A DNA stretch of 63,401 nucleotides, the filler included, from Hausera hauseri (lineage: Eukaryota): the NCBI GenBank assembly GCA_046269625.1. It is 9 parts of 9 records of this genome, joined end to end, with 100 filler letters (N's around TTAATTAATTAA, not from the genome) between each part and the next. Parts side by side here need not be neighbours in the genome. Positions count along the whole stretch, not along the records: positions 18,537 to 22,845 come from JBJURY010643663.1; 8 more parts are not named here. One strand, 5' to 3'. Numbering within the stretch: position 1 is the first letter of the stretch; each line of letters opens with the position of its first letter. This document shows, in pieces, positions 1 through 54,793 of this stretch. A program made the position numbers and the translations under genes. The notes under the pieces are model-generated. The model was not told the origin of the DNA and did no database searches. It saw nothing but the letters and a program-made list of their open reading frames with translations.

Positions 1-1080
1 GCATCCTGCCGGTCTCGCAGGGACGTCAATGCACGTTGATTTGGGTTGGGGCAGGGGGTGGTGAAATATCCGGGCTAAGGCATCGGCTGTTGTTTCCGTC
101 AACATCATCAGTCCCATCACGTTACCGGCACCATGAGCATCGGCATCCCACAGCGACTCCTGATAGCTGATTGCTGCCAGCAGCTTCCAGTCCAACCCGG
201 TCACCACACCTGCCTGCTGAAAGTATAGCCGATGCTGCGGCAATTTCTGCTGGACACGCAATACAAAAGTCGGCGCATCCAACGCATGCAGGCGATGTGC
301 ATACCCCCAATATCGCTCATGTATCTGCTGCAAACTGCCATTTTGTTGCGCCTGCTCAATAAACCTTTGTGCATGGCGATAGATTCCATCATCACGAAAG
401 GGGGGGAACCCCCATGCCACAGGCTGCGGTACTCCCACATCAAAAGCCACTGCCAGACCCGGATAGTATTGCTGCTCCAGCGCCACCAGCCGGGAATCTG
501 CAATCGTGGCATTCACCAGGCCTTCAGCAACCTGGGACAGCATATCCAGACTGCTGAATTCGGCATTTTCGATCCACGGCACCGAGGGCATGGCTCGTGC
601 CAGCCGCCGCCTGGTCTCTGGTGTCAGCACACCGGCACCCGCCATAAAAACCGACGAGTCATGACCCCAGTCCACAACACGCTGACGGTCATAGACCACC
701 TGCTGACGCACCTCCTGATATGGCTTACCCCACTGCACCCCGCCCCAGGGCGGCTGTGCCCCCACCACCAGCGCCGCTGCCGCCATATGTGCCTTGCCTG
801 CCAACAAAGTGGGAATCACATCCCGGGGGTGTGCAACCACCAAAAATCTGGCTCTGACCGTATGATGCAGCTGCTGGCTCAGATACGCGGCAAATAACTG
901 AACCGCGTCGTATTCAGGACCGGTCGGCTTGTCTTCACCATTGTAGTAATATGTCAAAGGACCGTTGTATGTGACCACAACCAGCTCACCGTGTGCCTCT
1001 ACCGCCAAAAGCTTCTGCGGCTCATAACGCCAACCCAGCAGCACGATCACGAGCAATAATCCTGAAGTCCAGGCACGCAT
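1..1080 (-). CDS. mltF: Membrane-bound lytic murein transglycosylase MltF, 3' end runs off the window
   Basis: Manual translation (not in the ORF track): MRAWTSGLLLVIVLLG...GELVVVTYNGPLTYYY...GPEYD (substrate-binding domain), then DWKLLAAISYQESLWDADA...GLMMLT (SLT catalytic motif). Confidence 0.9.
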   Translation of the reverse strand, partial: MRAWTSGLLLVIVLLGWRYEPQKLLAVEAHGELVVVTYNGPLTYYYNGEDKPTGPEYDAVQLFAAYLSQQLHHTVRARFLVVAHPRDVIPTLLAGKAHMAAAALVVGAQPPWGGVQWGKPYQEVRQQVVYDRQRVVDWGHDSSVFMAGAGVLTPETRRRLARAMPSVPWIENAEFSSLDMLSQVAEGLVNATIADSRLVALEQQYYPGLAVAFDVGVPQPVAWGFPPFRDDGIYRHAQRFIEQAQQNGSLQQIHERYWGYAHRLHALDAPTFVLRVQQKLPQHRLYFQQAGVVTGLDWKLLAAISYQESLWDADAHGAGNVMGLMMLTETTADALARIFHHPLPQPKSTCIDVPARPAGC

Positions 1081-1192
1081 GGGTCACATGGTTTCACAAA
1101 GCAGCACTTGTTGTCCACCATGTCCACCAGCAGATATGCCCCATCATTTCACTGGTTACCGATGGCCAGAAATGCTAGCATTGGCGGGATAA

Positions 1193-1282
1193 GGAAGAGT
1201 GCCAGAGTGGTCGAATGGGCCGGACTCGAAATCCGGTGTACTGCTTGCAGTACCGTGGGTTCGAATCCCACCTCTTCCGCCA
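1193..1282 (+). tRNA. tRNA-Ser(CGA)
   Basis: Acceptor stem GGAAGAG/CTCTTCC, anticodon arm CCGGA-CT-CGA-AA-TCCGG, long variable arm, GGTTCGAATCC T-loop, encoded CCA end. Confidence 0.97.
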
Positions 1283-1287
1283 AACTC

Positions 1288-1629
1288 TCAGCAATCTAAT
1301 AAGGCCAGGAGTCGACCAAGTGCCTCGTCGATGACTGCTTTTGGAACTCTCTCGATTTTCTTGGCGTTTCTGGCCGAAAGGTCGAGCATGCGAATTTTGT
1401 TTATCAATGCAACACCCTGTGTTCGGCACCCAGCATCCGTTAGGCTCACGGCGAATCCAGCATACCGCGAGAAATCTTCCCCCTGGGTGATCGGTGCCAC
1501 CAGCACATCCCCCAGCCTGTTGAACTCTTTTGTAGTGAGCACGAGCGAGGGCCGGGTGCCCCTTTGCTCTCGGCCAACGATTGGGTCAAGTGGCACGCTG
1601 ACCACATCACCGCGATCGAAACTTGGCAT
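1288..1629 (-). CDS. mazF: Type II TA toxin, PemK/MazF family endoribonuclease
   Basis: MPSFDRGDVVSVPLDPIVGREQRGTRPSLVL...VAPIT motifs. The likely true start ATG at 1629 overlaps the antitoxin stop (TAATG). Confidence 0.9.
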   Translation of the reverse strand: MPSFDRGDVVSVPLDPIVGREQRGTRPSLVLTTKEFNRLGDVLVAPITQGEDFSRYAGFAVSLTDAGCRTQGVALINKIRMLDLSARNAKKIERVPKAVIDEALGRLLALLDC

Positions 1630-1880
1630 TACCAAACCTCTCTCCCAACAGGGTTGGCGGCATCCCACAAAGCGAGGTCACTGGGTGGAGGTGCTTTGGG
1701 ATCGCAGGCCATAATCATTTCGCTGAGCGCGTATTTTCTTTTGCGCGCCAGAACGATCTCACCCTTTCCGGTTGTATTGAGCGCCATAACGTGACCTGCT
1801 GCCAGCCCAAGGTCGTTCAGGACGGCAGGGGGTAAAACTGCAACCGTGCTATTGCCGTATTTGCGCAAAATAATTTCCAT
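1629..1880 (-). CDS. mazE: Type II TA antitoxin, AbrB/MazE family
   Basis: LRKYGNSTVAVLP swapped-hairpin motif, C-terminal ...W...PVGREVW, AGGAG RBS, coupled to the toxin. Confidence 0.9.
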   Translation of the reverse strand: MEIILRKYGNSTVAVLPPAVLNDLGLAAGHVMALNTTGKGEIVLARKRKYALSEMIMACDPKAPPPSDLALWDAANPVGREVW

Positions 1881-2012
1881 CTAATGTCTCCTGTGTGAGG
1901 TACGCGTTAAGTGTACCCGTGGAAGACCCTGACGTAAAGCATTGTTGAACATTTGGACTGGCTCTCGGGTTTGGCTCACCTTCCGGACAGCCAATAAGCC
2001 AAAAGCCCAGGC

Positions 2013-2045
2013 AAAAAAAAACGGCACTGGTAAGTGCCGTTTTTA
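2013..2045 (-). terminator. Rho-independent terminator of the porin gene, probably bidirectional
   Basis: A-run, ACGGCACT-GGTA-AGTGCCGT stem, T-run; 28 nt past the porin stop. Confidence 0.85.
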
Positions 2046-2072
2046 TGTTGGTCTTGCTAAGACAGGTAAATC

Positions 2073-3386
2073 TTAGAAGAACAGTATGCCACCAAAACTG
2101 ACAATGGAGGACTTGTTCCGAGCACCCGCCTGATTCTTGGACTTGACATCAGAATACTCAGCCACCAGGTTCAGGTTGGAAGTGAGCGGATGGTAAGCCC
2201 CGATCGTCCACATTTCATTTTCCTTGACCAGTTCCTTGATAGTGGGATCAATGGCAGCGTTAGCTGTGTCGTTGCTGTTTGCATCCAGATTGGAGATACC
2301 CCAGCTTGCTGCAATTTTGGTGCCTGCACCCGGAATCTTGTAGGAACCCTGAACATAACCACCATTGCTGTCACGCTTTGTACCATTCAGGCTAAACCCA
2401 TCAGCCAACAACGCCGTGGTACCTACCCCTTCACCATCATAGTAATAGCCCACCACTTCAAAGCCACTCATGGCTGCCTTGCCACCCACAGCATAAGCCG
2501 TGGCCGTCTGAGAACCGGTTCCAGCGGGCGTTCTATTAGCGGGAGTAGCAGCAACGGCAGTGAATTTGCTTATCCCATCCACCTTCTGCGTCCAGAACTC
2601 AGCCCAGACCTTACCGGAAACATCACCCGTCCAGGAGTAGCTCGCTTTACCTTCAAACGCAGGCGACTTGTTGGCACCGCTGGAAGCGGCACTCCGGCCA
2701 CCACCGACGCCACCACTGGCAACAGCGCTAGGGCTACCACCCAGATTTACGGTATTCCAGGGCTGGGCAATCCCGGCCGTGAACTGGAAGCCATTCCAGT
2801 TGGGCGAGGTGTAGTTGATCTGGCCTTTAAAGTCGGCATACAGAAAACCAGCACCAATACGACCCAGCGTTGTGGTCGTGCCACCAGCCGCGCCGACAAT
2901 GCCTTGCGAACCCACACCCAACAGGGTTTGGTCATTCAGAATGGCATCGGAGGCAAACACGCCCAAATCCTTACCAATCTTGACCGTACCCCAGCTTGCA
3001 TCACCAAACGTCAGATTGGCTTGGCGCAGTTCAGCACCCCCACCACCTTGCAGAGAAGTTCTTGATGAAGCACCTTGTTGCACACTGAAGGTCCAACTGA
3101 TGTCCAGGTCATTCTCACGCTTTTTGCCGGTAACACCAAACCAGGAAGGCAACAAACCCGTGTTGATGCTGCTGGCCTTGCCGTTGGCCGAGGCAGACTT
3201 CGCGTTGGCTAAGCCACCGGCAACGGTGCTGGTACCTTTGTTGTTGGAATAAATGTAGAAAGCATTCACATTACCGTTGATGTCCAGCGTCCAGTCACCA
3301 GCGGGAATCACAATACCAGCACTAGCAGTGTTCGCGCCCAGCGCCAGCATTGCTGCAGAAATAGCCATGCTTAGTTTTTTGTTCAT
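2073..3386 (-). CDS. Outer-membrane porin
   Basis: Signal peptide (..ANTASA), alternating beta-strand pattern, C-terminal Phe (GGILFF). Confidence 0.9.
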   Translation of the reverse strand: MNKKLSMAISAAMLALGANTASAGIVIPAGDWTLDINGNVNAFYIYSNNKGTSTVAGGLANAKSASANGKASSINTGLLPSWFGVTGKKRENDLDISWTFSVQQGASSRTSLQGGGGAELRQANLTFGDASWGTVKIGKDLGVFASDAILNDQTLLGVGSQGIVGAAGGTTTTLGRIGAGFLYADFKGQINYTSPNWNGFQFTAGIAQPWNTVNLGGSPSAVASGGVGGGRSAASSGANKSPAFEGKASYSWTGDVSGKVWAEFWTQKVDGISKFTAVAATPANRTPAGTGSQTATAYAVGGKAAMSGFEVVGYYYDGEGVGTTALLADGFSLNGTKRDSNGGYVQGSYKIPGAGTKIAASWGISNLDANSNDTANAAIDPTIKELVKENEMWTIGAYHPLTSNLNLVAEYSDVKSKNQAGARNKSSIVSFGGILFF

Positions 3387-3614
3387 AGATCAATCTCCAT
3401 AATATTTTGATTTTAGTGCGGGGTCAGCTCACCCCTGTTAGCTCTTAAATTTTGCAGTGTTGGTTGTTAGACAACACTGCTACTCAATAAGAAAGTTCGC
3501 GAACTCTCTAATCAAACCAACTGATGAGAGTTAGTACATGTTACTGGCTAATAACAACCTTTAGCAAGTAGAAATCACGCGCAGCCACAAGATATGGTAT
3601 TTCCTGGCGCAGGG

Positions 3615-3634
3615 GTGTTGTATTTTTACAACAC
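3615..3634. promoter_or_regulatory. Palindromic putative operator upstream of the porin
   Basis: Perfect inverted repeat GTGTTGTA-N4-TACAACAC in the intergenic region. A second hairpin GCAGTGTTG/CAACACTGC lies at 3454-3480. Confidence 0.5.
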
Positions 3635-3662
3635 TTTTGAACAGTTCGTGTGGCTGCCCGGA

Positions 3663-5594
3663 TTAACTCAAGAAAAAATCCTTTACCTCCTGCAACGCTG
3701 TGCTGTGCCGCATAGCGGGCAAACTGTGCAAGATGGATTTACCGTACCCCTTCCCCAACAATCTCGGGTCGCAGATCATCAACACCCCCCGATCCGTCGT
3801 ATCCCGAATCAGGCGACCGACCCCCTGCTTGAGCACGATGGTGGCGTACGGGAGTTGATAATCCACAAAGGCATTCAGGCCTTCTGCCGTCATCTTGGCA
3901 ATGCGTGCGGCCAGCACCGGGTCATCCGGCGCTGCAAACGGCAATTTGTCTATAATCACCAGCGCCAGTGCATTACCCCTTACATCAACGCCTTCCCAAA
4001 AGCTGATGGAGGCCACCAATATCGCATTGCCCTGCTGACGGAACTGCTCCAGTAACTGATGTTGCGGAAGATCACCCTGACGCAATAACGGATACCTGAC
4101 CGAATGACTGTACAAATAGTCTGCCAGCAAGCGATGTATCACCTCCACCGCACGCAAACTGGTACACAACACAAAAGCCCTGCCCCGGCTGGCCTGGATA
4201 ACAGGCCAGATGCTCCGTGCAACGGCTTCTTGATAGTCGGCGCTATTGGGTTGCGGCATGCCGGGTGGCATAAACAGCATGGCCTGTTGCGCGTAATCAA
4301 AAGGACTATCCCAACGTGCCGTTTTCGCTTCCAGTAAACCCATTTGCTTCAGATAATGGCTAAAATCATCGCCCACCGCTAAAGTGGCTGAAGTGAATAT
4401 CCAGCTGCGCGGACGATCGCGCATTTGTTTGCCAAACATTTCCGCTACCGAAAGTGGCGTGGCATGCAACTGCACAGACTGCGGGGAAACCTCCAGCCAA
4501 TACACAAAGTCCGGATTGGGCTGTTCCAGCCATTGCGTAAACCGGGTATATATCTGCACCGCACGCAACCAGCAATGGTTCAATTCTGCGGTTCGCCCGG
4601 CCTGCGTCTCCAGCACGGTAATCAGGTTCATCAACTGATTGCATACCGCCGCATAATGTGGCTGGAAGGCGGCATGCTTTCCGGCGCCATGCGCTGACAT
4701 GCGCGCAGTTCCCAACCCGAATACCAAGCGAAAATCCCGCAGCAACTTTTCCAGTGATAAACAATGCGCCTGTAGTGACACACAATCTTTGGCCCCCGCC
4801 AAATATGCCGCACGGGTATCGCGCACCAGCTCAAGCAGCTGATAGGTAGAAACACTTTCGCCAAAAAACAGTCCGGCAATTTCTGGCAACTGGTGCGCCT
4901 CGTCAAAAATCACGGTATTGGCGGCAGGTAATAATTCGGCAACACCTTCATCTCTCAACATCACATCCGCAAAAAACAAATGGTGATTTACCACCACCAC
5001 ATCGGCTCGCAGTGCCTTTTTGCGTGCCTCCATGACAAAACACTGTTTGTAATACGCACATTCATTACCCAGGCAATTGTCCCGGGTAGAAGTCACTTTA
5101 GCCCAAATGCTCGCATTCACGGGCACCTCGGGCAGCTCGTTTTTGTCACCGCTTTCGCTATGTTCCCCAAAACGCCGGATCACCTGTATCTGCGCGGCCT
5201 CCTCACGACTGGCGAAACGCCCGTCTTGCACCGCACGTTGCAAGTGATGATGACAAAGATAATTGGCTCGCCCCTTCAACATAGCCACACCCACCGGCAC
5301 ACGCAATGCAGCACGCACCGTTGGCAGATCGCGGTTGTATAACTGATCCTGCAAGGTTTTGGTGCCCGTTGAGATAATGACTTTTCCGCCACACAGCAAA
5401 GCCGGTGCAAGATAGGCAAATGTTTTACCCGTACCCGTACCCGCCTCAACCACCAAAATGTCGTTGCGCTCTATGGTCTGAGCAATGGCCTGTGCCATTT
5501 CCACCTGTTGTGGACGGGTACGATAATGGTCAACCTGCGCTGCCAGCAGCCCGTCATGGGCAAAAAAATCACGAAGGTGGCTAATAACGCTCAT
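3663..5594 (-). CDS. yoaA: ATP-dependent DNA helicase, YoaA/DinG family
   Basis: EAGTGTGKT (Walker A), KGRANYLC Fe-S region, DEAH box, FWEGVDV, KQGVGRLIR. Confidence 0.93.
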   Translation of the reverse strand: MSVISHLRDFFAHDGLLAAQVDHYRTRPQQVEMAQAIAQTIERNDILVVEAGTGTGKTFAYLAPALLCGGKVIISTGTKTLQDQLYNRDLPTVRAALRVPVGVAMLKGRANYLCHHHLQRAVQDGRFASREEAAQIQVIRRFGEHSESGDKNELPEVPVNASIWAKVTSTRDNCLGNECAYYKQCFVMEARKKALRADVVVVNHHLFFADVMLRDEGVAELLPAANTVIFDEAHQLPEIAGLFFGESVSTYQLLELVRDTRAAYLAGAKDCVSLQAHCLSLEKLLRDFRLVFGLGTARMSAHGAGKHAAFQPHYAAVCNQLMNLITVLETQAGRTAELNHCWLRAVQIYTRFTQWLEQPNPDFVYWLEVSPQSVQLHATPLSVAEMFGKQMRDRPRSWIFTSATLAVGDDFSHYLKQMGLLEAKTARWDSPFDYAQQAMLFMPPGMPQPNSADYQEAVARSIWPVIQASRGRAFVLCTSLRAVEVIHRLLADYLYSHSVRYPLLRQGDLPQHQLLEQFRQQGNAILVASISFWEGVDVRGNALALVIIDKLPFAAPDDPVLAARIAKMTAEGLNAFVDYQLPYATIVLKQGVGRLIRDTTDRGVLMICDPRLLGKGYGKSILHSLPAMRHSTALQEVKDFFLS

Positions 5595-5680
5595 CAGGTG
5601 TAACCGGTATCGAAACTTGCAGCAGAAACTCCCCTGTACCCAACACCCCCCACAGAACGGACAGGGTATGGTTACCGCAT

Positions 5681-6262
5681 TTATTCACCTGGCTTGCTTT
5701 TTGCCATCTGCTCCAACCAGGCTTTCTGCATACTTTCAAATTGCGCCTGCATATTTTGCGCGGAAGGTGGAGAGCCGCTCGGCATCATACCGGGTGGTGG
5801 AAAAAACAGCTGGTTATACATACCCATGGGGTTCATCCAGTTCAAAAATGGCGCCATGCCCACCGGGCTGGACGCTGCCGGATCCACCGTGCCGCTGTTC
5901 GCTTGCAGTGTTGCGGCATCCGCATTGGAGACCCCTGCATTTTGCATAGGGTTGGCCAAATGCATCCAGGATAAAAAACTTTCCAGATAGTGGCTGACTG
6001 CCACACTAAATGGACTTTCATACAGCATAATCAGGCTGGTCAACGCCTGTGCCGTCACGACCTTGTGCTTGGATTCAGTGTCCTGTTTGTTGATAATCTG
6101 CAGCAGGATGCCGTTGGTGATGTCTTCCTGGGTTTTAACATCAATCACTTCAACGGCTATCAGGTTGAGTATGTCTTTCTTGATGTCATCCAGATTGACA
6201 TACTCTTTTTTCTCAACGTCGTAGAGTCTTCTGTTGGGGTATTTGCGAAATATTTTTTTCAT
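5681..6262 (-). CDS. phaR: PHA synthesis regulator PhaR
   Basis: N-terminal KYPNRRLYD...YVNL...D..T..DIT...LLQII DNA-binding motif; last gene of the pha cluster. Start MKKIF at 6262 is inferred. Confidence 0.85.
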   Translation of the reverse strand: MKKIFRKYPNRRLYDVEKKEYVNLDDIKKDILNLIAVEVIDVKTQEDITNGILLQIINKQDTESKHKVVTAQALTSLIMLYESPFSVAVSHYLESFLSWMHLANPMQNAGVSNADAATLQANSGTVDPAASSPVGMAPFLNWMNPMGMYNQLFFPPPGMMPSGSPPSAQNMQAQFESMQKAWLEQMAKSKPGE

Positions 6263-6302
6263 GGGAAATGTTTCATAAACGCCCCAACAGTTTATCTGCA
6301 AA

Positions 6303-7352
6303 CTAACCTTTTAACCAAGCCAATATTTTACCGGGAACCTCCTGCGCCTTGCCAGAAACATACATACCGATGTGGCCGGTACCAATTTCCATTTCACTGT
6401 ACTCGCGAGAACCCACCAGCTTACCCAATGCCCGGGAAGCTTCTGGCGGAACCAGATGGTCATAGGCACCATATACGTTCAACACCGGCATGGTAATGTT
6501 TTTGAGATCCACACGCCGTCCGCCGAGTTCCAGCGTGCCATTGACCAACTGGTTTTGCTGGTAAAACTTTTGTACGAATTCGCAGTAGGCTGCACCCGCT
6601 TGATCTGGTGAATCATTGATCCAGCTTTCCATATTCAAAAAGAAGCTGGCAAAGCGTGTATCTGACAGGCTGTCCACCGAATCGATCCACTTCTTCAGGT
6701 TCAGCGAAATCGGCTGCAACATGTTGAAGTTGGTGTTCAGGCTTTGACCAGAAATATTCCCGTAAGCTTTCACATACTTTGCAATATCCACATTTTGAAT
6801 CATGTGACTCAGGATGTCTTTTTCGGTCTTGAAGTTGATCGGGGTCACCATAGTGATCAAGCGGTTGATTTTTTCGGGATGTAACGCAGAATAAATCACC
6901 GAAAACGCACCACCCTGGCAAATACCCAACAAATTCAGCCGATCAATACCATGCTTCTTGAGTATGGCATCCACACAGAAATCCAGATAGAAATTGATGT
7001 AGTCATCCAGATCGGTATAACGATCTGCCGGGGTTGGATAGCCCCAATCCACAACATAGACCTCGGCTCCGCCTTCCAGCAGTTTTTGTACCAGAGATTT
7101 GCCTTCTTGCAAATCGGCAATGGTGAAACGGTTCACCAAAGCGTAACTGATCAAAATCGGCGTCTTGTGTACCGGCTTTACCCCGCTCTTGAACTTGAGC
7201 AGCTTCACCTGATCCACTTGCGCCACTACCTCAGTGGGCGTGACCCCAGGAGAAGCGGCCTTGAGATTTCTCAGATTTTCCAGAGACTGATAATACTTGC
7301 TCATCCAGTCCTGCACTCTCTGAGCATTCTTGAACATTTCTTGTGCAATCAT
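6303..7352 (-). CDS. phaC: Class III PHA synthase catalytic subunit PhaC
   Basis: About 350 aa, with YALVNR, LGICQGG lipase box (Cys), DHLVPP (Asp) and GHIG (His). Size and motifs match class III. Confidence 0.93.
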   Translation of the reverse strand: MIAQEMFKNAQRVQDWMSKYYQSLENLRNLKAASPGVTPTEVVAQVDQVKLLKFKSGVKPVHKTPILISYALVNRFTIADLQEGKSLVQKLLEGGAEVYVVDWGYPTPADRYTDLDDYINFYLDFCVDAILKKHGIDRLNLLGICQGGAFSVIYSALHPEKINRLITMVTPINFKTEKDILSHMIQNVDIAKYVKAYGNISGQSLNTNFNMLQPISLNLKKWIDSVDSLSDTRFASFFLNMESWINDSPDQAGAAYCEFVQKFYQQNQLVNGTLELGGRRVDLKNITMPVLNVYGAYDHLVPPEASRALGKLVGSREYSEMEIGTGHIGMYVSGKAQEVPGKILAWLKG

Positions 7353-12691: not shown

Positions 12692-13760
12692 TTATTGTAC
12701 AAAACATTCCTTTATACATTCACATTGATTCTGTAATCGAGTTTTCACCAAATCGATGGCATAAACACAATTCACGCCGACAATACCGGCAATTCCACCG
12801 TTCAGGATTTGCGGTAGAAAATTTATTCCAGGAGAATGCACGGACCATCCAAAATCTACCAATTTCAGATTGTAATCATAATCGATGACCAAATTTTCAG
12901 GCTTTATGTCGCGATGTATAACGCCATTTGAATGACAATACACGAGTGCTTCACATAGAGTAGCCCATCTGCAATCATTAAATCTAGCCCTTCTTTCGCA
13001 AAATACTATACATCTGATCGTACCACGCATACACAAGAACCAGATAAACTCGAATATAATCATCAAACCAAGTGTATAATTGTAAAATATTCTGATGGGA
13101 TAATTTAGTGATAATATTCACTTCACAGAAGAAATTAATAGAATTATTTTCATACAATGATTTTTGAACATAACTTTCAGTGCACAGAGGAATCCTTCTT
13201 TTTTCGTCTTAGCTAAAAAAACACGACCAAATTTCCCAGTACCCAACAAACTTCCAACATCAAAATCATCTAATTTACTTTTTGCAATTTCTTTATCAAC
13301 ATGATAACGTAACAATTTTCCAACATCGAATTTATCAAAACTGTTGCTTGGACTTAAATTCTCCGTAACTGGCGGTTGAAAAATATCAACATACAAATTC
13401 ATCCGAATTATATAGTAAAAAAATTACGTAGCAAAATAATCAAATACGAATCAGTCAGTAAAAAATTTATTATTAAAACAAACCATCACAAAATCTACAA
13501 GGCCAATCAATCCGTAAAAATTTTTTTGCATTCATTCGAGATTTTACAGACTTCTGCGATAATTTCAAGTTTCGATCAAACGATATTTCTTTCGACACAT
13601 CTGTTATGATACGACAATGATTTTCATCTTCAAATTCTTTTGCAGGCATTAAACTTAGTCTTGATTGTGTTAATCGTTTTCCTGAATTCGGATATGAATC
13701 ATTTGAAGTTATTCGATTAGTATCCAACGATTGTAAGCGAACGCGATCAAAGCTTGTCAT
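12692..13760 (-). pseudogene. Aurora-kinase-like pseudogene, 3'-fused to an SLC25 mitochondrial carrier fragment
   Basis: [37 protein letters not shown] and DFGWSVH, with frameshifts and stops; then [26 protein letters not shown]. Confidence 0.8.
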
Positions 13761-15674
13761 TTAATTTTTTCAACAAAAATATTGCTTAATTCAGCTTTCT
13801 TTGCCACTTGTACAGAAACAAAACAAATTATTTACAAAGTTAGATAACCACTTCTCAAAATTACACGGATTTTATGACTTCAATTACTGCCTACTTTATA
13901 AAATATAGATGGATGACTTGAAATTTCCAAATAAACCATATATCAGTATTTGGTAGTAAAATTTGAAAATCTGATTTAAGGAACAATAAGACTTTTACAA
14001 AAAATTCGGCGAAGAGAGAAAATTGACGTACTACTTCGATTTTATCGATAAGTTAAAAACTACAGTGACAAAACAAAAAGCTGCCGAGTGTACGGGTCAA
14101 CGTACAACAACTGCGGAGCAAACAGACACACACTGCCTTGAAAAAGTTTTTTTCAGACGTTTGTCGATAAATGTCCGGAATATTTTATTCCATGCGACAG
14201 ATATGTCTTTTCGGTTTTATGTATTGTCCTTTAAATCGTAAGGTGATTCGGAAATGTCTGTTTGCGATTCCGACCGAAAATATCACAGATGGAGAGTATT
14301 GTTTCACGATGTCGAGTTGAGAAGCGAGATCCTGAAGTCTCTTGTTTACTTCTTCGTAGCAACATAAAGATCCTTAGTGTCGTATTCAGTTACCGAATTT
14401 TTACTTTCTTGAAATCGAAAGATAAGCTGAAACGTGAAACCCAAAAAAATAAACTTCAAATTGAAATTTAAAAGGTTGAACTGTTATCAAATTACTGTTA
14501 AGAAAATCCGAAATAGAAATTGAAACTACCAGATTCTTTTATTTATTGTTTTTTTCACTCAAACAAAAAAACTTTACAAAAGTTCATATGCACATGTATG
14601 ATCCGTATATCGTGCAAATCTCACACGAGACAGTAACACACAGACTCGTTGTAAAACACAATTTCAATTGATATCACTTTTCTTAACAAAAAAGTATGAG
14701 AAATTCAATTATACCGCAGTCGTATCCCGATATGGCAACATGTACACATTAGTAACAGTTAGCAAAATAAAGTACGTCTTATCACTAAGAAACACCAGTG
14801 TATAAATTCGGAGATTTCAATTGAGGTTTCGAATTTCGTAACTTCAAGATGGGCTGTTGATGCTCGCATGTCATGTTTGTTAGAACTGGAAGAATGTAAA
14901 GAATACCATTAATTTCATTTTGGCTACTGTTGATTTCAGTCATATAGATGTTCAATGCATTAATAGCATAATCACTCATCTGATTGACTTTATTCGAGTT
15001 TTGAAAAGATGTTGAATCTTCTTTAAACAGTTTAATGTAGCAAATGAGAGAGAATAATGTTTCGTCTGGTTCCTTCGGTTTTACTGATCGGCCAGACGTT
15101 TTATCATGATCAGCGACTTTATTAAATATGAAAATTTTAGCTAGACTAATCTATTTTTCTGAATTTGAAAAACTGGAGTAATTGTAGTTTTAGGTAATCA
15201 TGTGGAAATCTTCAGACAATTGAACGAGAGTTATGGGAGACATACGTTCTTGTACTTGATCATGCTGTTCGAACAAGATGCGAAGAAATTTGCATTTAGT
15301 TTGTTTATTCGAGGTATTGAAGATAGTTTCTCATAAATTTCCACCGAAAGTTCTGAATTTATCTGAAAGTACGGAGGAGGATTATGATTGAGTTTGGTAT
15401 TTGGATTCCTTGTTGTTGTAGATGAATGCTGTACAGAGGGTACTTTGATGAAACGTTGGATGAGTAGAAGTCTAAGCTTGGTAATGACGCTGTACTTTGC
15501 AAATATCGAGATTGGCTGCTGGGTAGGTTGAAATCGATGATCATTGATGATCAGTTATTTGGCGAATGGGCTGACGAAATCGACTGGCACTCAGTGTTGC
15601 TTGTATGCGACTGATTTCTTTGGCACACAAATGTGTGTGTTGACAACCAATAAAATTGTTTCTCAGAGGTCGGA

Positions 15675-15770
15675 AATTGGGCCCGACTATGGGTACTACG
15701 CGGCGGCAACGGACGCCGGACCGTGCCCAACCAAATGGGCTAAAGGACACCAGCCGCTGTGGGCAGCACA
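15675..15770 (-). repeat. GC-rich dispersed ~100-bp repeat, probably an LTR 5' terminus. Copies at 16511-16606 and 36024-36121
   Basis: Shared core GTGCCC(A/G)ACCAAATGGGC(C/T)AAAG; homology starts abruptly at TGTG(G/C)TG. Confidence 0.65.
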
Positions 15771-15779
15771 GAGAGCATC

Positions 15780-16450: not shown

Positions 16451-17614
16451 CTCTTAGTTCTGGGATTATCATAAAACTTTTCAGACTTAGAAAATATCCT
16501 CAACAAGGGGAATCGGACCCGTCTAAGTATCCGACGCAACGAAAACGGAGGCCCGGCCGTGCCCAACCAAATGGGCCAAAGAGCACCGGCCGCTGTGGAC
16601 ACCACAGCAAGGTAAGCGAAAATTCATAAATTCTTCAGAAAAACATTCATATAAGAAAATTTCAAAACCATGATTAAAAACTGATACAATTCTAAGCACA
16701 ATATCTTACAAATAAATTATCTCTGTCATGAGAATCTGACGAGAAAGATAATGTCATCAGGATTTTGTATCCTTCACAAACAGACAAAATGACCGCATCC
16801 TATATCCTAGTGTTAGGTATTTTTCTGTTGTAACATATAAAAACGTTAGAGTCGGACTGTTCATTCATTTTTTCCTTTCTTGCATTTATCTTTCCGAACA
16901 ATTTATTCAATCATTTTCTTTTAGCGTCTCTGACTTTTGTCTTTATCTTCTGATTGTGGGTTCGTGTACGGTATAACAACAAAATTGCCTCCGCACGAAT
17001 TTCTTTTAAACTTAAGTCATCATTACACTTAAACGATAGATGTAGGGAAATTAGTCATTTATGTAATGAAAATTTATTTCACAAAATATTTATAACGATT
17101 CATGTGGCCTTGATTAAACTATATTAATCAATCAATTTATATATGCAACAATTTTATTTAATTACCGACGTTATTTTCTTCCATAAAATTTGCTCTGGAA
17201 AGATTAACTCGGTTGTCCATATCAGTTCTTAGCTGGATTGAATGACAAAAGATTTCAGTAAATTTTTTTCGTCGTTCTTTTTGTTATGGTAGTGACCATT
17301 TACTGAAGGAAGGAATCAACTTTGTTTCAAATAATTACGTAACACGAGAATTTCTATTGTAGACTGGAGTAATAAAAATGGATATACTATACCGTAAAGT
17401 TTTCGTATGATTCGGGATTAAGCATTTACGATGTAGCATTTATTGTTTAAAATGCCAATCTCAAACTAATAAAAATAACAATTGTCTTGCAACCAAGTAA
17501 AATATCTACGACAATTGATGCTGAAGTTCTGAGAAATTTCACGTATATATTCGTGTCGTAATTTAGGTTGAAGCAATAATGGTTACTGTATTTACTTGGT
17601 GGTAGTTTATATAC

Positions 17615-18436: not shown

Positions 18437-18957
18437 NNNNNNNNNNNNNNNNNNNNNNNNNNNNNNNNNNNNNNNNNNNNTTAATTAATTAANNNNNNNN
18501 NNNNNNNNNNNNNNNNNNNNNNNNNNNNNNNNNNNNTAATAGTATGCATTGTGGATTGTGGTGGATTGTGATGGTGCCCGAATCCGCGGCACCACACTCG
18601 TCACTGCTTAACTAATAATAATATTTACAATTTGTCCTTTTCTCATTTACTATACCAATATACTGATAATAATATTTACAATTATTTTGCAGTGTGTCCT
18701 TTTACCATTTAATTCTCAACATTCTGCGTGGTTCACAACATTTTACCTCCCTGAGATGCATCCTCGGATGTGCATATTGCGTCAGGAAAGATGAAGTCCT
18801 TGTCTGGTCGCCTGAGGAGATCTAGTCTACGCCGGAGGTCTCTCACTTTCTGTATCATACAAGATTTCATTCTGTATTTCCTGACTAGTGGTGGGTTGAA
18901 TTTGAATCCTTCTGTTGTAAGTACCGTCCGAATAATACATAAGTCCGGCGGCTTCTG

Positions 18958-19100
18958 CACGACATAGAGGACACTTGATCTTTCCATTCTCTAGTGTCCA
19001 AATTTCAAGGCATCCGCGGCATTATTTGTGTCTGCATCCTTTGTTATCTAATTTGACGTGGCCTTTCTTAATATTATTTCTACATACAGGGCAAATACAC
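18958..19100 (-). pseudogene. C3HC4 RING finger remnant
   Basis: Manual translation CPVCRNNIKKGHVKLDNKGCRHK*CRGCLEIWTLENGKIKCPLCR, with one in-frame stop. Confidence 0.7.
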
Positions 19101-19622
19101 TCTTCTTCACCGATATTGTCTCAATCTAGATCTATTCTCGGAAAATTTGTATTTGTTCAAACACTAGTCCATGCTGGTCTTGATACAAATAGCCGTGGAT
19201 CATTTTCTGTTTTGTATCAATTAAACGTTTGCGGGAATCGTAGTTCACTGGCACTAACGTCCAATCTACGATGGTTTCTTGATGAAAACCTGGGATTTTG
19301 ACCTCTTTTTCGTATTTCACATGCTGTTTTCTCAGCATTACTCTGATTTGTGTATGCACGGGTACGGACAATTTTCCTGTCCTTTTTGATTTAAATATTG
19401 GAACTAAATAGTGCCCGATCTTGGGTCGTCCGGCAACAAACCTCAAGTTTTTATTTGGATATATTCCATTTTCTTGTTACTAGAAATTCCGAATATGTTT
19501 TCGTCTAGTATTCGTTTAAGTGGGTCGGTTGACTGGATTGCCTCACCCAACTTTACTTTAAAATATCGATCTATTGAAGGTGTATCTAATTGAGATTGTG
19601 GGTCTACTTCGACGTATACCTA

Positions 19623-21450
19623 TGTTAATTCCGGAAGGTACAATCGATAAGTAGGAATGTAGGTTTAAAAGTTATTGCTTTATTAGAGGCCCTAACTCTA
19701 TTGCAAAGCACCGTAATCGAAAAACAATAACATAAAATGAACGTAAAAAACGATAGAATAAGACCTTATAAAGCCACAACGTTTATTTACATTAAAATCG
19801 CCATCTGCTGAGGAGTGCGACTCTTCCGTTGAGGAGAGAGATGGTCCGGGCCTGTAAAGTCGGCGAGGAGGGATTGGTTGGTCGTTCGTACTGGAGCTGG
19901 ACGTCCTCGTACGACGTGTTTGGGAGATTCGATGGCCCGGAATCAACTGACTGTCAAATGGAACCAGTAAATCGAAAAGCCGGTCTGTAGTCGCCATCAG
20001 TCTTATGAAGACTGGTGGGAAAACGGAGGAGTTGAATAATCGCCGGCTGCCTCCATCGGCGTAGAATTTTTGAAGATGCCCTGTTGGAAGGCAGTACTGA
20101 TCGTACTCCGGCAGTCTGCTTAGGTGCCGCACAAAACGGCTCCCCTGCAGCAACTCGCGCACTGTCTGACAGTCAGAATAAGAACGGCACGGAGCTTGAC
20201 AGTCTCAAATGCAACGTCGTTTCCTGGGAGCGTCAGCATTTTCCCGTCTCGATTTCGGATCGTTTTGTCCTCCGTGATGTGCATAGTCACTCACCAACGG
20301 CTGCTTGTATAGCTTACTGTGGGATGGCGGAACATTTTCTCTAGCTCGGACTGGTCGAGGTATCTTCGGGATTCGATACCCCGGAGTTGTTGCCTTGGAT
20401 TCTCCGGTGCCACGACCATCTTGTTGTGAGTTGTCGATAGTCTTGCCCATCCATACATGACTTGCTAATTTTTCCACACATGTTGCCTGAGCCACTTCCG
20501 GGCCTTTGTACCCCGAAGCCATATCTATGGTTTCATCCAAATCGACGGGAACGTGGGGTTGAGCGGGTTTCGCTCTCCGTTAAGTTTCCGTGGTACGAAT
20601 TAGCGCGGTCTCCCTTTCGTTTCTCCGGACTATCTGTTGACCGGGTTTTGCTGCGTATGCTTTGGTTCTCTGATCACTGGTGGCTGTAGTTTGGTCCATG
20701 GTTTTCATCGATTCGGACATTTGTAGTTTTTATTTCTTTTCTTGAATAACACTGGTTTTCCTTAAACTGTGGATTCAAACAAATGGATTTGAATCCACAG
20801 ATTTTGATTGTTAATTTTTATTTATTACAAGTGCTGGCCACTTCGGCACTTGTAACCCCGATATTTAATTTTTATACTTTGTATTTTTGTGTTGGCGTAT
20901 TCCTAAGGAAATTTGGATTTTCATGTTTAATTAGGATGAATTCGTGAAGTTAAATTGTATTGGGTTTAAGTAGGTAGTAATGGTTTTACAGAAGATATGA
21001 ATTCATGTGTATATTGTATTTTAAAACCTGAAATCTATGCAGTATGATAATATGCATTTTCTACTGATTAATTTTGAAAATATTGAACTGAAATTATGAC
21101 TTTGGCAATGTATTCTATCGAATTCTCACAATTTTTCTGTAATGTCGAAATTAAATAATATTGACGTTAAATCAATCAGTATTTGCTTAGCTTTCACGGT
21201 TATTTCTCTTTGAATTAGTGTAATGGATTAAGGTCGTTAAATATTCTGATCAACCTGTTGAAATTTAATCCTTCTAAAGTTACGCCATGCCTAGTGACTT
21301 AAAATGGATTTTGTTAATAATTATAGTTAACACATTAAGATTAACCATAATCAGTTTTTCTGTTTTGTGAAAGCTATATATTTCCGAAAGTGTGTTTTTG
21401 TAATTCATTAAATACAAAATTTAATATTTTTTGTAAGTTGGAACCTTACA
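19623..21450 (-). repeat. LTR-like repeat, copy A, containing a conserved unknown ORF
   Basis: Starts TGTAAGGTTCC, ends ...AACA, AATAAA near the 3' end; homologous to 21451-22774. Confidence 0.6.
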
Positions 21451-22774
21451 AGGGTATTTAGGCGTTTCTTCCTTACGGATCGACCTTCTAAACAAAACCG
21501 GGAGCCAATTTATTAAAGCAGTCGAATAAAACGACTGACATACGAAACATAAAAAGAACGAACAAATAAGATAAACACTTTTTATTCACATCGTCAACCG
21601 CATCCGCCGAGGCGTATAATTCATTCGTCGATGAGAGTGCCGGATCAGTTCGGAGATTTCGGCTTGTACAAGTCGGAGCGTCTTCCGAACTTAAATTCAA
21701 CTGTGCGGGTTTTTGTCGTGCCGGATATAAACGGCGTCTGCGACACAGGTTTGGTATATCGTCGGAGCTCGACATCCTTGCATGCCGCTGTTCAGTGATT
21801 CGCGGTACTGGAATCAACTGGCTGTCCGAGGGAGCCAGTTATTCGTAAAGGCGGTCGGCTGCCGCTAACAGTCTCAGAAAAACCGACGAGTCAAAGAGTC
21901 GTCGATTTTTCCCGCCGTCGTAGAACCGGTGGCGCGTTCCCGCAGGTAAGCAATAGGGATCGTCTCGTCTCAACCTGGAAAGGTGCCACACGAAACGGCT
22001 CCGTTTCAACGGCTCCCGTACCGTCAGGAAATCCGAATAGGACAGGTACGGGGCTCGATTGTCGGGGTCGCGGTGTCCGTGTCCGAGGGAGGTAGTGTCT
22101 CTCCGGGCTGCCTTCTGGACGTTTCGACCGGCAGGATGTAGCCCGCTGCTTGCCACCTGCTAGTCGGGTGATCCATTACTAGGTGCTTGTGTTTTGTCTC
22201 AAGCGTGGGCTAGTCGGGAAATCTTTGGAATTCGATATCCCGGATTGATACTGTTCTTTCCCTGGCGATTGTTTCACCGGTGCAGACCCCGTGCTTTATG
22301 ATCGGCTCGCCGGGTCTGGCCGTATGCGTGTTCACTCCATTTATGCTGCTAGCGATATAGATCTGTATGTTTTTCGCACCTTCTTTGGTGTTGGATTCAC
22401 CGTATTTTGATAACCTGGTTACGGTCATCTGGCCCTTTCCGACTGTATTCAACATTTCTGGCATGTTCTTCATTGTTCGCGTTTCCAGACTCTGTGTATA
22501 TATTTTTTGAATGAAATCAATTTTTCTTAAACTGTGGATTGAAACAAACGAGTTTAAGTCCACAGATTTTGCTTAATAATTTTTTGTTTGCTACAAGTGC
22601 TGGTTGCCTCAGCACTTGCGATTCGCATTTTCGCTTTTATTTTTTGTTATTTTGTATGTAAGAAAATTTGATTTTCGTATATTTTATTTGACCGAATCCG
22701 TGATGTTGAAGTATTATATTTAATCATTTATGTGTGATTTTAAACTTTATGTTATTGTAAGATGGAACCTTACA
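21451..22774 (-). repeat. LTR-like repeat, copy B (3' truncated), containing a conserved unknown ORF
   Basis: Starts TGTAAGGTTCC after a PPT-like TTAAAGTGGCCTGGATAC; same two hairpins and ORF as copy A. Confidence 0.6.
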
Positions 22775-23499
22775 GTATCCAGGCCACTTTAAGAGAAACT
22801 GTTTATCCTTATTATTGCCTTTTCTCCTGAGATTAGATTGAATCCNNNNNNNNNNNNNNNNNNNNNNNNNNNNNNNNNNNNNNNNNNNNTTAATTAATTA
22901 ANNNNNNNNNNNNNNNNNNNNNNNNNNNNNNNNNNNNNNNNNNNNTGGGTTCGTGTACCCTATATACATTGTTGGACCATTATATCTCAGAATATTTCGA
23001 ACAATTCCGTATTCTTTACGAATTAATCGGTATTGTATGGAGCATATTTCCTCTAGTCACGTTACAGAATGTCTGTAATAATTCGTGGGTTACTTCGCAT
23101 TTTACTGGAACTGTTTGATTACTTTTAGCGTCTATTATGCGTATTTTTATCCACTGATTATATTCTAATTCTAACCTGCTTGTTACTCAAATTCAACGTC
23201 TACCACTTGAATCCAATTGATCTTGCAATTATTCGATTATTATCACATCTAGCTGCGTCTCATTCATTCTATGTCAGTTAGATTTGTATATAAATTTCAC
23301 TCTTTGTATGCTGGCTTCGTTAATACCCGCCTTGCTTTTTAATTAATATATAATATCTTCCATGTGTTCCCGAATCTTCAACTAAGCATTCGGTTTGTTT
23401 TCCGATGATTTAATATGCAACCATAGTTTCGTTCGTTAGGATTTCTTATGTCCCCTTCCCGTGAATTACGTGGATTGCCACCATATATTGGATTGACAC

Positions 23500-28230: not shown

Positions 28231-29267
28231 TTACTCAATCCGCGATGCAAATATCCAAATCAGTGTAATGTATCCGTGCCACTCGACGAGATATTGTTTA
28301 TTTGAACTGTTGTCACGTGAACGTGGAATTTCCGCAATATGATATACATCAGATTTTTCCGGTAGTACTTGCAGTTCCTGTTCGTAAAATTTGCCACGTA
28401 TTTCGTCACAATTTTCATCTTCTGAAACATACATAACAGGTGTTTGTTTTTTGCTGATTGATGAAATTCTAAAAACCTCATCGCTCCAGTTTTGACTGAA
28501 ACTCTTAATAAATGGTGTCGTACTGAGCTTTGAAATACATATATAATCACGGACTTTATGCATGGGATGTTTAACTGGTCGTCGTTGTGTTCGATTTTGG
28601 TAAAGCCACATGTCCAAATCATCGATTACATCCACCGGCCGTAATCCATTGATGTCACAATGTGTCAAATGATTGTATGCATGAATAATATCCTGCAGTA
28701 CATCTACGCAGCGTTTGTTGCCTTGCTTCGTAAAGAATTCGTTTAGGAGACCGCGCCATGTTCGATTAAATCTGTTCAACGAATTCAGCCTTGTAATGGA
28801 AAAAACCAAGTAGTGGTTTACGCCAAACCGTTTTAAGACCGCTGCAACGTAGAAATTGCAGAATTCCTTACTCAAATTCGTTTATAAATGCTTCAGTGGA
28901 TGTTGTTGATGTTGCATTCGTGTCTGAACAGCGTCGACAGTTTTTTTTACCGGATTTAGATTTCACGGCAATTTCACGTGCGAAATAAGTAAACAAATAA
29001 ATGCATGTCAACATGTACCGATACCCATCGTTGATGCTGGCGTACGGAATCATCTTTATTAGATTCATTTGCCATACGTTATTTACACCTGAAGCACGGT
29101 TTGCACGAGTTGGAAACCGCCTTCTTATCGATTTGTTTAGGCTGCATGCTAACTGTTTCCCGAGCCAACGTTGAGTCTATTGTCGAGTCTGTTTGACAGT
29201 CTTTTCAAGTTTGTCGACGCAAGTATACCCAACAGGATGACGTTGGTTGAACCACACGTCGTCCATC
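28231..29267 (-). pseudogene. Polinton retroviral-like integrase with C-terminal chromodomain
   Basis: NDGYRYMLTCI, NRFNRT, NWSDEVFRI, GKFYEQELQ and KQYLVEWHGY. Confidence 0.88.
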
Positions 29268-32011: not shown

Positions 32012-32657
32012 ATGAATAATGTAAAGATTATCTTAACAGACAAAAATGCCTTTATACCGAGACGTGTAACAGCAAACAGTGCCGGCTACGATGTGTTTTC
32101 CAATGTCAATATGAAAATTCCGGACAGCACAATCAAATGCATAAGGACTGGGATTCGATTTTTCGAATCCACCCGGTTACTACGCCAACTTTTATCGAAA
32201 AGCGGACTGGCAAAGCTCGGACTGTCGGTTGTGGGCGGCGGTGGTGTCACTGATTCAGACTTTTGTGGTGAAATTAAGGTAAAATAGGATTCTTTTGGAG
32301 CAACATATTAAGTTATAACCTTTATATACATGTATTTTTGAGTACTATGATGTTGCAGAATTTGTTTAACGTTCTTTATGTAACGTTACATAATGAACGT
32401 TAAACAAATTCTGCAACATTATTGTCCTCAAAAAGACATGTATATGAAATTAAGGTGTTGCTATAAAACCAATCCTGGAAACCGTATGCTTTTTTGAAAG
32501 GCAGTGCAATCACACAAATCATTTTTCTTCGCTGTGAAGAGGCGGAATTCAGTCTAATGTCACCGAAACAATGGGAACTGTTTTGCGTCAATGAATCGGC
32601 ACGAAATGAACGCAAACAATTTAACTTTGGTGACATGGGCAAAACCACCTATGTTTA
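32012..32657 (+). pseudogene. dUTPase interrupted by a palindromic insert
   Basis: SAGYDV, RTGI, KSGLA and VTDSDFCGEIKV before the insert; EIKVLL*N...GSAITQIIF and R..FNFG after it. Confidence 0.85.
32324..32445. repeat. 122-bp loopless palindrome (foldback/MITE-like)
   Basis: 61-bp arms with 5 mismatches by manual comparison, centred on TATGTAAC|GTTACATA. Confidence 0.9.
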
Positions 32658-33360: not shown

Positions 33361-36300
33361 CTTCAATAACGGAACGGATCAATGACATGGAGGTAATTTG
33401 TATCATTCTGATGAGACAATACTCACAATGTAAATATCTATTGTTTACAATGAAAGCAAACCGGTATGAACAAATTTGATATAAATAGAGATGCAATTTT
33501 ATTTCACGTTTGTCTTCTTTAAACAGTGACTTTGGAGAACAATTCAGAAGGTGACAGTTCCGTGAGTCTCTCAGAAAAGCCAAGGTACAGCGAATATTCG
33601 CTCAAAAATTCCCGGCTGTATAATGGTTACAATTAACATTATCTGCGCAACGATATTCAATTGCCACTGACGCAAAATGTCAAAATCAAACCGGCGAAAT
33701 ATGGTCTATTAAGGAAAAAGATTAGCAACAATGATTTGAATACAATGGAAGACACAATTAGAAAAGCTGGCAGTGACTTGGTATTGACTAACGATATCCG
33801 AGACATGGTGGAGAAGCAACAGCAGCAGTTTTCCACCGGAAGGAGCTAAAGGCTACCTGACACTGAAACTCAAAGGATTTAAGGAAAGGAGCGGCATCAA
33901 ATCCCCAATATAAAAAATGTTGAAGTTTACTATGATTAANNNNNNNNNNNNNNNNNNNNNNNNNNNNNNNNNNNNNNNNNNNNTTAATTAATTAANNNNN
34001 NNNNNNNNNNNNNNNNNNNNNNNNNNNNNNNNNNNNNNNATATAGTAGCATAGCAAATGTACAGAATCACGTATAAAATAAAATGGCAACGAAAGTTTCA
34101 ATCATGGTGGTTTGTTTAGTCAATTAATCATAAACTAACAAAAATATCAATTATATCTACATATACATCAATTTATTCTTCTTACCCACAACGTCATCAT
34201 CTCCATTACGTGTTCCTGTTGTTGAACTAATTGGTAAATTCATATTCAGCGTTATGAGGAGAATTTATGATAAGTTAGACAATGAATTCTTTTGAGATTG
34301 GGAAAACTCGCCGTCGTACAATGAGTTCGATAATATCGGATATCGGTTGTATCGCTAGTTTCAAAATCACCCGTGATTTTTAATGGATCGGAATAAAATT
34401 AACATAATTTTCTAATATTTTCATACTCCTGATCGTAGAAAGTGCCGATTATGATCACACAATATCGTCAAGACTTTCCATGGCAAAATGGTTTCGAAGT
34501 AACAAATTGAAAACGTTATTAATTGTGTTTAGAATTTCCGACGGTATTTATACAGTCGGGAATTTTGTAATTACAATAATTAAAAATACACTGTCTTAGC
34601 TTCCATTTGTTAAATTGAAGATTTTGGACACTTTTTTCATCTGTATGTGCTTTATAATTAATATTAACTAACATTTTAAAATTTTACACACGCGCAGTCT
34701 ATTTATATTTTTTCAACCAATCAGAATGCCGCATGCTAATGAAATTTAGTATAAATACAGGTCGCCATTGGAAAGAAATCTTTTTTGTTCAAAAATGGAA
34801 TATAACGCCTGCTGTCTTCGATTAGATGTTGACAATAATAGTAAAGTCATAATTATCGATCCAAATGAAGAAAACAAAGCCATAATTACTGATGAAACTA
34901 TTGTGAATGGCTAAATAGCTGATTCAACTGAAGAATTTGATGAAAACAAAATAGCCGATGATGAAATTATTATAGATGAAACTGTTGCATATGAACAATT
35001 TAATGAAAACAGTATTAAAGTATCTGATGGTTTAATTATAATGGATGAAACTGATGCGGATGACGTAGCTGATTCAACTGAAGAAGAAGAATATGTTGAA
35101 AGTGAACCTGTGATAAGCGTATAATTTTATATTCAATATAATATATTTAATTATTTTAATGGGATTGTGAAAGTTAAGATGAAAGCAAAAGAACGTTTGA
35201 TGAATATGTCGATCAACTAACAATGATCTACCAGTATAATGCCTGTGCTACTGAAACTGTCACTTATGAAAAGGATTTCGATATTACCAATTTTCTTAAA
35301 CAATTAAGTGATACAATTGAAAGTAGTATATTTCACAAATCAAAAATTATTCCTGAAGCCAAATTACTAACTGCCGTACGAGAACATATTCAGTTATTTG
35401 CTTGATGCATGATGATTTACGATATTATAATGAAACTTGGTACAAAAGAAATGGAAGGAAGACAGGAAGAAAAAATTCCAACTTAATTAAAAGACTAACA
35501 ATCATCTTTGCATGTGTAATGTATTTATTAATAAACTGTATTTATTAATAAAACTGAATGTAGTTTAATGTTAAATAAATTTTTATGTGTTGCGTGTTCT
35601 TACTTTGACAGTTTTTACTCATGTTGTAGAAATAACAAGACACTGCATACAAAATAAAAAACAAGTCACTGAATACAAAATTTATTATATTACAAATGTA
35701 CAAAAATTCAATGTCCATATTTATTAAATTCAACAATCACATTGTTTAGTTCATTCTGACTGTTTTCCAATTCTTCTACCATTCTGATTATTTTATCAAT
35801 CATCGGACTAACATTAATCAGTCTACTTCGTATTACCTCCAACAGAATCTCAGGTGCTACATACACAAGATCATCTGACGTAGTAAACAAGTTCTGCACT
35901 TCATGTAATCCTTGATGAATTTCTTCTTGTTTCAACTTAATCACTGCTGAATAAACAGTCATTTTTGATTTAAATAAAGCCAACATATCTGAACTAATTG
36001 GTTGAGACATTTTCATAAGTGACTGTGGTGCCTGCGGCGGCCGGTGCCCTTTGGCCCATTTGGTCGGGCACTTCCGGGCCTCCGTTGCAGTCGCGTCGGA
36101 CCCATAGGCGGGTCCCGATCTTCTACCCCGAAATGTTTGGTTCTGAAATTCCTCCGAGTTTTGAAATCAACTTTCAATGAGACGAATACAATATCATTAG
36201 CTACACTGGATGCATTTTCTATGTAAAGAAAGAAAAAGTCTATTGAAAGTATTCATTCCGGTGTAACAAGAACAAAATTTTTACATTTCTTTAGGTCATT

Positions 36301-49459: not shown

Positions 49460-49471
49460 TTCTAGTTTAAA
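49408..49471 (-). promoter_or_regulatory. Programmed -1 ribosomal frameshift signal between gag and pol
   Basis: T TTA AAC heptamer (49471-49465) directly before the gag TAG; the -1 frame is the pol frame; 14-bp perfect stem 4 nt downstream. Confidence 0.88.
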
Positions 49472-54608: not shown

Positions 54609-54793
54609 TTTTTCTAATTTCTTTTAAATTATATTTCTAACAATTAATCTACTATTATTCCTATACACACAAATTATTACTTAAAACAATATCNNNNNNN
54701 NNNNNNNNNNNNNNNNNNNNNNNNNNNNNNNNNNNNNTTAATTAATTAANNNNNNNNNNNNNNNNNNNNNNNNNNNNNNNNNNNNNNNNNNNN

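Follow-up and report, generated by a model that had tools for sequence, protein, structure and literature searches.

The window analysed here is a stretch of 63,401 nucleotides (1-63401) composed of nine unrelated contigs joined by N-linkers, namely one bacterial contig and eight AT-rich eukaryotic contigs that are rich in mobile elements. Judging from translations, the genes of the bacterial contig are presumably those of polyhydroxyalkanoate synthesis, a porin and a helicase. One AT-rich contig of 4,309 bases (18537-22845) carries two related copies, both on the minus strand. Copy B (21458-22774, 1,317 bp) starts with TG, ends with TAA and is bounded by a 4-bp direct repeat; it is likely a solo LTR. 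Copy A (19623-21450, about 1,828 bp, with an inferred 3' end) is likely an LTR of a diverged subfamily.

Both copies open with TGTAAG. The 5' terminal motif of B (22756-22774, minus strand) is itself a 6-7-6 inverted repeat, and the corresponding motif of A (21432-21450, minus strand) is identical to it in 18 of 19 bases. Allowing up to five mismatches, this 19-base motif occurs exactly twice in the window, at 22774 and 21450, where it stands in direct orientation with 21 of 23 bases alike. The likeness between the starts extends over about 70 bases, with a score reached by 2 of 300 shuffles, and A does start at 21450, which bears out an earlier reading of the sequence alone (hereafter the sequence-only reading) that A and B share their starts. 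Another start of A near 21031 was rejected, as its score was reached by 128 of 300 shuffles. Seven bases separate the end of B at 21458 from the start of A, and the 5' part of A is about 500 bases longer than that of B.

Both flanks lie outside the element. The flank broken by B (22779-22845, minus strand) encodes the tail of an integrase-type gene, which we take to be chromodomain-like. It matches the tail of an integrase-like ORF on another part of the window (28231-28881, minus strand) with a score of 54 that was reached by none of 1,000 shuffles, and it has no Pfam hit at its length of 23 aa. The integrase-like ORF with its chromodomain-like tail has no Pfam hit either and is presumably of Polinton type. 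The other flank (18824-19622, minus strand) is a decayed gene with a C3HC4 RING finger (Pfam zf-C3HC4, E 2e-5, 24.7 bits against a cut-off of 21), and this coding relic reaches the 3' end of A. No homolog was found for the 114-aa piece before the RING finger, and searches with the ORF on this downstream side yielded none of 26 candidates against longer proteins and no ESM Atlas match.

Several other features were observed in the window. A Gypsy-type gag (336 aa) and pol (1,276 aa, with protease, RT and RNase H as well as integrase) lie at 45653-50472 (minus strand) and are apparently unbroken, and another gag-like start, located at 54150-54623, shows 71% likeness. A fusion glycoprotein of Monjiviricetes type (Pfam PF24664, E 1e-35) is encoded at 58891-60174 (minus strand). 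Its contig also contains pieces of a Gypsy-like pol, which marks this as an env-bearing element. A GC-rich 100-bp repeat is present at 15672-15771, 16508-16607 and 36023-36115 on two contigs (78-83% alike), and CPTKWAK..H.P can be read in one frame in all three copies. At 12692-13117 (minus strand), one frame reads from a piece of a protein kinase into a piece of a mitochondrial carrier, likely relics of adjacent genes. Finally, a near-perfect palindrome of 128 bp (91%) occupies 32321-32448.

Anatomy and coding capacity of the copies

The 5' part of each copy is AT-rich (GC 0.28-0.29) and measures 742 bases in A and 301 in B. The ORF that follows is GC-rich, with a GC content of 0.52, and the short 3' part is again AT-rich. 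Two conserved inverted repeats lie just before the ATG on the minus strand, at 20764-20855 in A (folding z -5.6) and 22529-22619 in B (z -3.7), in both cases with values reached by none of 200 shuffles. What is kept between A and B is the sequence of these repeats itself, with no clear compensatory changes, and they could act as RNA hairpins or as palindromic DNA sites for a dimer. The 3' part contains an AATAAA, a T-rich tract and a second AATAAA, again on the minus strand (19679-19787 in A, 21509-21586 in B). The two signals stand at matching places in both copies: the first lies where coding conservation ends, and the second is 57-62 bases from the copy end (57 in B, 62 in A, whose inferred end is CA). 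A TATA box common to A and B was not found.

The ORF of A (19698-20708, minus strand) comprises 336 codons from the aligned ATG and has two internal stops, while that of B (21488-22473, minus strand) carries a frameshift near 22250 followed by three internal stops. All motifs that the sequence-only reading had placed in one minus-strand ORF of both copies are present, and its remark that both copies carry stops was correct. The ORF that it described is real and starts much further up than it had assumed, at 20708 in A and 22473 in B. Within the ORF, a conserved core domain that is predicted to be helical covers 86 codons in A (19938-20195, minus strand) and 82 codons with one stop in B (21809-22054, minus strand). 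A separate motif, PGYRIPKI (20361-20384 in A, 22220-22243 in B, minus strand), is invariant in A, B and the intact relative described below.

Across 81 codon pairs of the core, the comparison of A and B gave a pS of 0.74 and a pN of 0.23, and thus a pN/pS of 0.31 (bootstrap 0.22-0.43; Fisher p 5e-12). The Jukes-Cantor dN/dS was 0.09, with dS near saturation. Differences in the core are distributed over the three codon positions as 21/19/46, or as 20/20/45 with a DNA-guided alignment. As a control, the ratio was 1.2-1.6 in four of the five other frames and 0.44 in the antisense frame that shares third positions. The synonymous codon examples of the sequence-only reading (LSRL and a Leu pair) are correct in the DNA, and its proposal of a real protein under purifying selection is upheld by the pN/pS of the core and the excess of third-position differences. 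Outside the core of about 85 residues the ORF is weakly constrained, with a pN/pS of 0.57 in the tail and 0.79 in the linker. Among 40 listed of 692 differences between the window and other contigs, 16 inside the ORF were classified, and 13 of these change a residue, as neutral decay after insertion predicts. Such a combination, in which selection is seen between subfamilies and changes in individual copies are unselected, is common for genes of mobile elements.

Relatives and predicted structure of the protein

One intact relative, P0006, was identified on a contig of 1,788 bases. It is 213 aa long, contains both PGYRIPKI and the core, and matches with 63% identity over 56% of the query (E 7.5e-29). 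It was the only true match in three protein searches, emerging as one from 69 word-search candidates and as one from 8,000 profile-scored sequences. A full phmmer search over 1.84 billion proteins without length limit returned three matches, of which P0007 and P0008 were dropped as spurious tandem-repeat proteins. No longer protein containing the domain was found among these 1.84 billion proteins.

Known domains were not recognised in the protein. Pfam searches at E up to 1 assigned no family to P0001, P0002, P0003 or P0006, PHROGs and PDB sequences gave no match, and the best ESM Atlas score of 0.78 was below the usable level. Two structure models based on three-sequence alignments predict four to five helices within about 70 residues and disorder in the rest, with mean pLDDT values of 64 and 58 and core values of 70-88 in both runs. 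Foldseek found no match at E up to 0.001 among PDB and viral structures, and the best results of VIA-align (Z 6.9, rmsd 3.4, 68 residues aligned; Z 5.4, rmsd 3.1, 62 aligned) fall within the values usual for common arrangements of helices. The linker has a basic composition (K+R 10-14 compared with D+E 3-6). The conserved part has no membrane segment, with a maximal 19-residue hydropathy of 1.35 in P0006. A hydrophobic C-terminal tail was considered as a membrane anchor and rejected, since it stems from the T-rich tract after the AATAAA, differs between A and B by frame-breaking gaps and is missing in P0006. Such a layout, in which a small helical domain is joined to a basic arm and one invariant motif stands apart, suggests a factor that lacks enzymatic activity and docks onto a partner. 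Tentatively, and with somewhat less than even odds, the protein is read as a nuclear factor that would regulate expression of the element itself.

Copy ends and family members

The 4-bp target-site duplication of B, ATAC, is found directly before the start (22775-22778, minus strand) and directly after the end (21454-21457, minus strand); A starts three bases past the second ATAC. This 4-mer has its sole match within 21430-21499 there, and the chance of finding it within three bases of an independent boundary is about 0.04. The flank on the B side ends with W-P-G-Y and a Pro codon follows the second ATAC, which fits the prediction of a clean insertion.

Among the 17 contigs placed on 21390-21530, one B-like contig of 269 nt runs to 21457 and then continues with TGGTGGCAG, two bases past the inferred end; this primer-site-like evidence comes from that one contig, with six of the eight loose ends listed. 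TGGTGGCAG is a nine-base match to a published tRNA-Leu primer site, with a rough chance of 3e-4, the site used for comparison being that of the tapeworm ta-TRIM rather than that of a tRNA of the host. In passages of the description of ta-TRIM (PMC4558846), its primer site is given as nine bases of tRNA-Leu and its duplications as 4 bp, and the nine bases of TGGTGGCAG also stand at the start of a primer to the inner region; we infer that this primer covers the primer-binding site.

Other features that are typical of LTR elements were sought at the copies. Integrase needs CA at the 3' end of an LTR. B, the sole copy with a fixed end, ends with TAA and has no 3' CA, which may reflect decay of a former CA; for this reason the membership of the copies among LTRs is kept at likely. 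A has no target duplication within 19540-19719 and no primer site after its inferred 3' end, where the coding relic with the RING finger is found instead. The junction of A at 19623 is spanned by a 412-nt contig of run X1 without any difference, and as a guess, the original flank of A was lost by recombination between two A-type LTRs. Neither window copy has a polypurine tract, no gag-pol or LTR pair linked to any copy was seen, and the Gypsy-type pol genes on other contigs of the window show no likeness to A or B. Pattern searches for related loci gave 127 matches in JGI contigs and 46 in viral contigs, none of which was confirmed; the terminal motif at two JGI-contig loci was taken as chance, with no likeness beyond the motif. 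Since hammerhead ribozymes would mark a retrozyme or Penelope-like element, 18537-22845 was searched against Rfam, with no match at E up to 1. The sequence-only reading of LTR-like repeats has thus gained the duplication around B and one primer-site-like contig, and it has against it the missing CA of B, the missing duplication and primer site of A, the missing link to gag-pol and the junction of B and A (21453-21457), which no contig bridges among the 8 of 17 pieces listed. From the sequence, A and B are likely LTRs.

Run X1, with a share of 0.49 of the stretch, provided all evidence on copies and is possibly the window's own source. In this run 1,531 contigs align to the 4,309-base contig, 787 of them with less than 90% likeness. 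The summed depth, which is used as a contrast only and does not equal copy number, ranges from 120 to 4,800 in the parts that carry the ORF, from 8 to 31 in 20985-21416 and from 10 to 94 in the RING flank. The family to which A and B belong is dispersed and has numerous diverged members in this run. Depths of about 5,000-7,000 at 18681-18824 and 22780-22845 belong to other abundant repeats.

Discussion

We consider it likely that A and B are solo LTRs that represent two diverged subfamilies of one retrotransposon from an invertebrate, each with a broken copy of a selected gene for a putative helical nuclear regulator. The source element is probably of Ty3/gypsy type, and that its host is an invertebrate is judged from the other elements nearby. 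The analysis draws on three sequences of the protein and on one run.

The different parts of the copies could work together as follows. With the gene wholly inside the LTR, reverse transcription would copy it to both ends of the element, and recombination between LTRs would leave it in every solo LTR. Transcription would start from the AT-rich 5' part, pass through the two inverted repeats and end at the poly(A) signal that the LTR itself provides. Selection would be confined to lineages that transpose, with decay of every copy once it has inserted. The protein itself would consist of a basic disordered arm, the PGYRIPKI motif and a core of four to five helices, with no membrane segment and no catalytic signature. 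It may bind a host nuclear partner or the inverted repeats of the LTR and thereby raise or protect transcription of the element, a step that we put forward as possible without favouring it. The sequence-only reading had spoken of an LTR-encoded accessory protein, and this label would fit the anatomy of the copies.

The ORF could also serve as the opening exon of a longer protein of the element, whether gag-like or of another kind, being spliced from within the 5' LTR to the inner region; we regard this as improbable. In both copies, coding conservation stops at a donor-like site (GT-R-AAT) in phase 0, and the in-frame tails past this site differ by frame-breaking gaps. However, the site lacks the G at +5 and at -1, and its overlap with the first AATAAA accounts for four of its six letters. 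P0006 is moreover recorded as a 213-aa product, and the search of 1.84 billion proteins, which revealed no longer protein with the domain, argues in the same direction. Similarly doubtful is the possibility that A and B are whole non-autonomous elements, such as TRIM/LARD-like ends or a TG-started DNA transposon, with the gene as their cargo and without a gag-pol that belongs to them. In line with such elements, an autonomous partner was not seen, B has no 3' CA and the published primer-site match comes from a non-autonomous TRIM. Nevertheless, no terminal inverted repeat joins the ends of B with the end at 21458, a primer site behind the repeat calls for an element that is reverse-transcribed, and selection on the ORF would be harder to keep if the elements were mobilised purely in trans.

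Two further explanations concern the arrangement of the copies. Tandem duplicates of a host or Polinton/virus gene with promoters and poly(A) signals could account for flanks with an integrase-like tail and a RING-finger gene, and for the resemblance of each copy to a full transcription unit. This very improbable explanation is largely refuted: B breaks up its flank and is bounded by a target duplication, the depth between and beside the copies is at the single-contig level compared with hundreds of diverged contigs on the ORF, and both copies are broken. Least probable of all, and hardly to be expected, is that B is a Crypton-like tyrosine-recombinase element between direct palindromic sites at 22774 and 21450. 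In elements of this type, a single unit has recombination sites in direct repeat at either end, and the directly repeated 6-7-6 motif resembles such sites. However, the motif at 21450 forms its own depth block (21425-21452, about 350) and is tied in other contigs to the sequence that follows it at lower coordinates and not to the body of B, while the depth between it and this body drops to 7-12 among the contigs placed on 21390-21530. The 4-bp duplication of B itself falls within this gap, and the second motif is that of the next element. The motif at 21450 as the far end of B, with recombinase sites at both ends, was therefore refuted by contig placement.

If A and B are solo LTRs with a gene of their own, a more far-reaching model can be outlined. 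The LTR would be a complete expression cassette, made up of a structured leader, the gene and a poly(A) signal, and would encode a regulator whose small helical domain is new. Each fresh solo LTR would be a dispersed working gene that drives or shields the family in trans. In foamy viruses, according to PMC3694450, binding of U1 at such a donor blocks 5' polyadenylation, and the donor-like site could in a comparable manner switch between a short mRNA and the full-length genome. This model is speculative and, as a whole, rather unlikely.

Genes in or near LTRs are known from other systems. The LTR of MMTV is longer than 1 kb, and lentiviral nef as well as foamy-virus tas/bet, both regulatory, lie at the 3' end and overlap with U3. 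Nef and tas/bet begin outside the LTR, whereas here the start, the core and the end all lie inside. The arrangement resembles that of MMTV, where, in the sections of PMC9412291 that treat it, U3 holds an ORF for Sag and Naf that is driven by promoter P2, with Naf as a transcriptional repressor. Both cases share an entire protein gene within a long LTR, in MMTV with its own upstream LTR promoter. They differ in that the protein found here has no sequence likeness to Sag (no Pfam family at E up to 1), that its conserved part has no membrane segment and that the host is invertebrate-like and presumably has no T cells.

The tapeworm elements ta-TRIM and lennie, as described in passages of Koziol et al. 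2015 (PMC4558846), share the TG start, the 4-bp duplication and a nine-base tRNA-Leu primer site near the LTR, which lies four bases from the LTR compared with two here. Their LTRs are given there as about 198 bp in length with a CA end and no ORF, in contrast to A and B. Extra ORFs in LTR elements of plants, rotifers and planarians are likewise conserved, of unassigned origin and taken as aiding the element, but in the passages that describe them they are placed in the inner region and not in the LTR, in most cases between pol and the 3' LTR, or else ahead of gag (PMC7264820, PMC5408684, PMC6431247). Parts of three other papers (PMC10968565, PMC6692512, PMC10787394) served as general background only. 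No described case of an LTR-resident gene in an invertebrate retrotransposon was found in the literature covered, with subscription papers, Repbase and supplements outside this scope. A selected gene wholly inside an LTR is known from MMTV, and the gene described here, with its unclassified domain, is likely another, probably of a Ty3/gypsy-type element.

Solo LTRs are usually treated as non-coding promoters. If the explanation given here is true, the commonest remnants of an element can go on making protein. The product of the gene, whose domain is unclassified, would be a candidate for a transactivator or for a factor against silencing, and with P0006 an intact natural version is available that makes this role testable.
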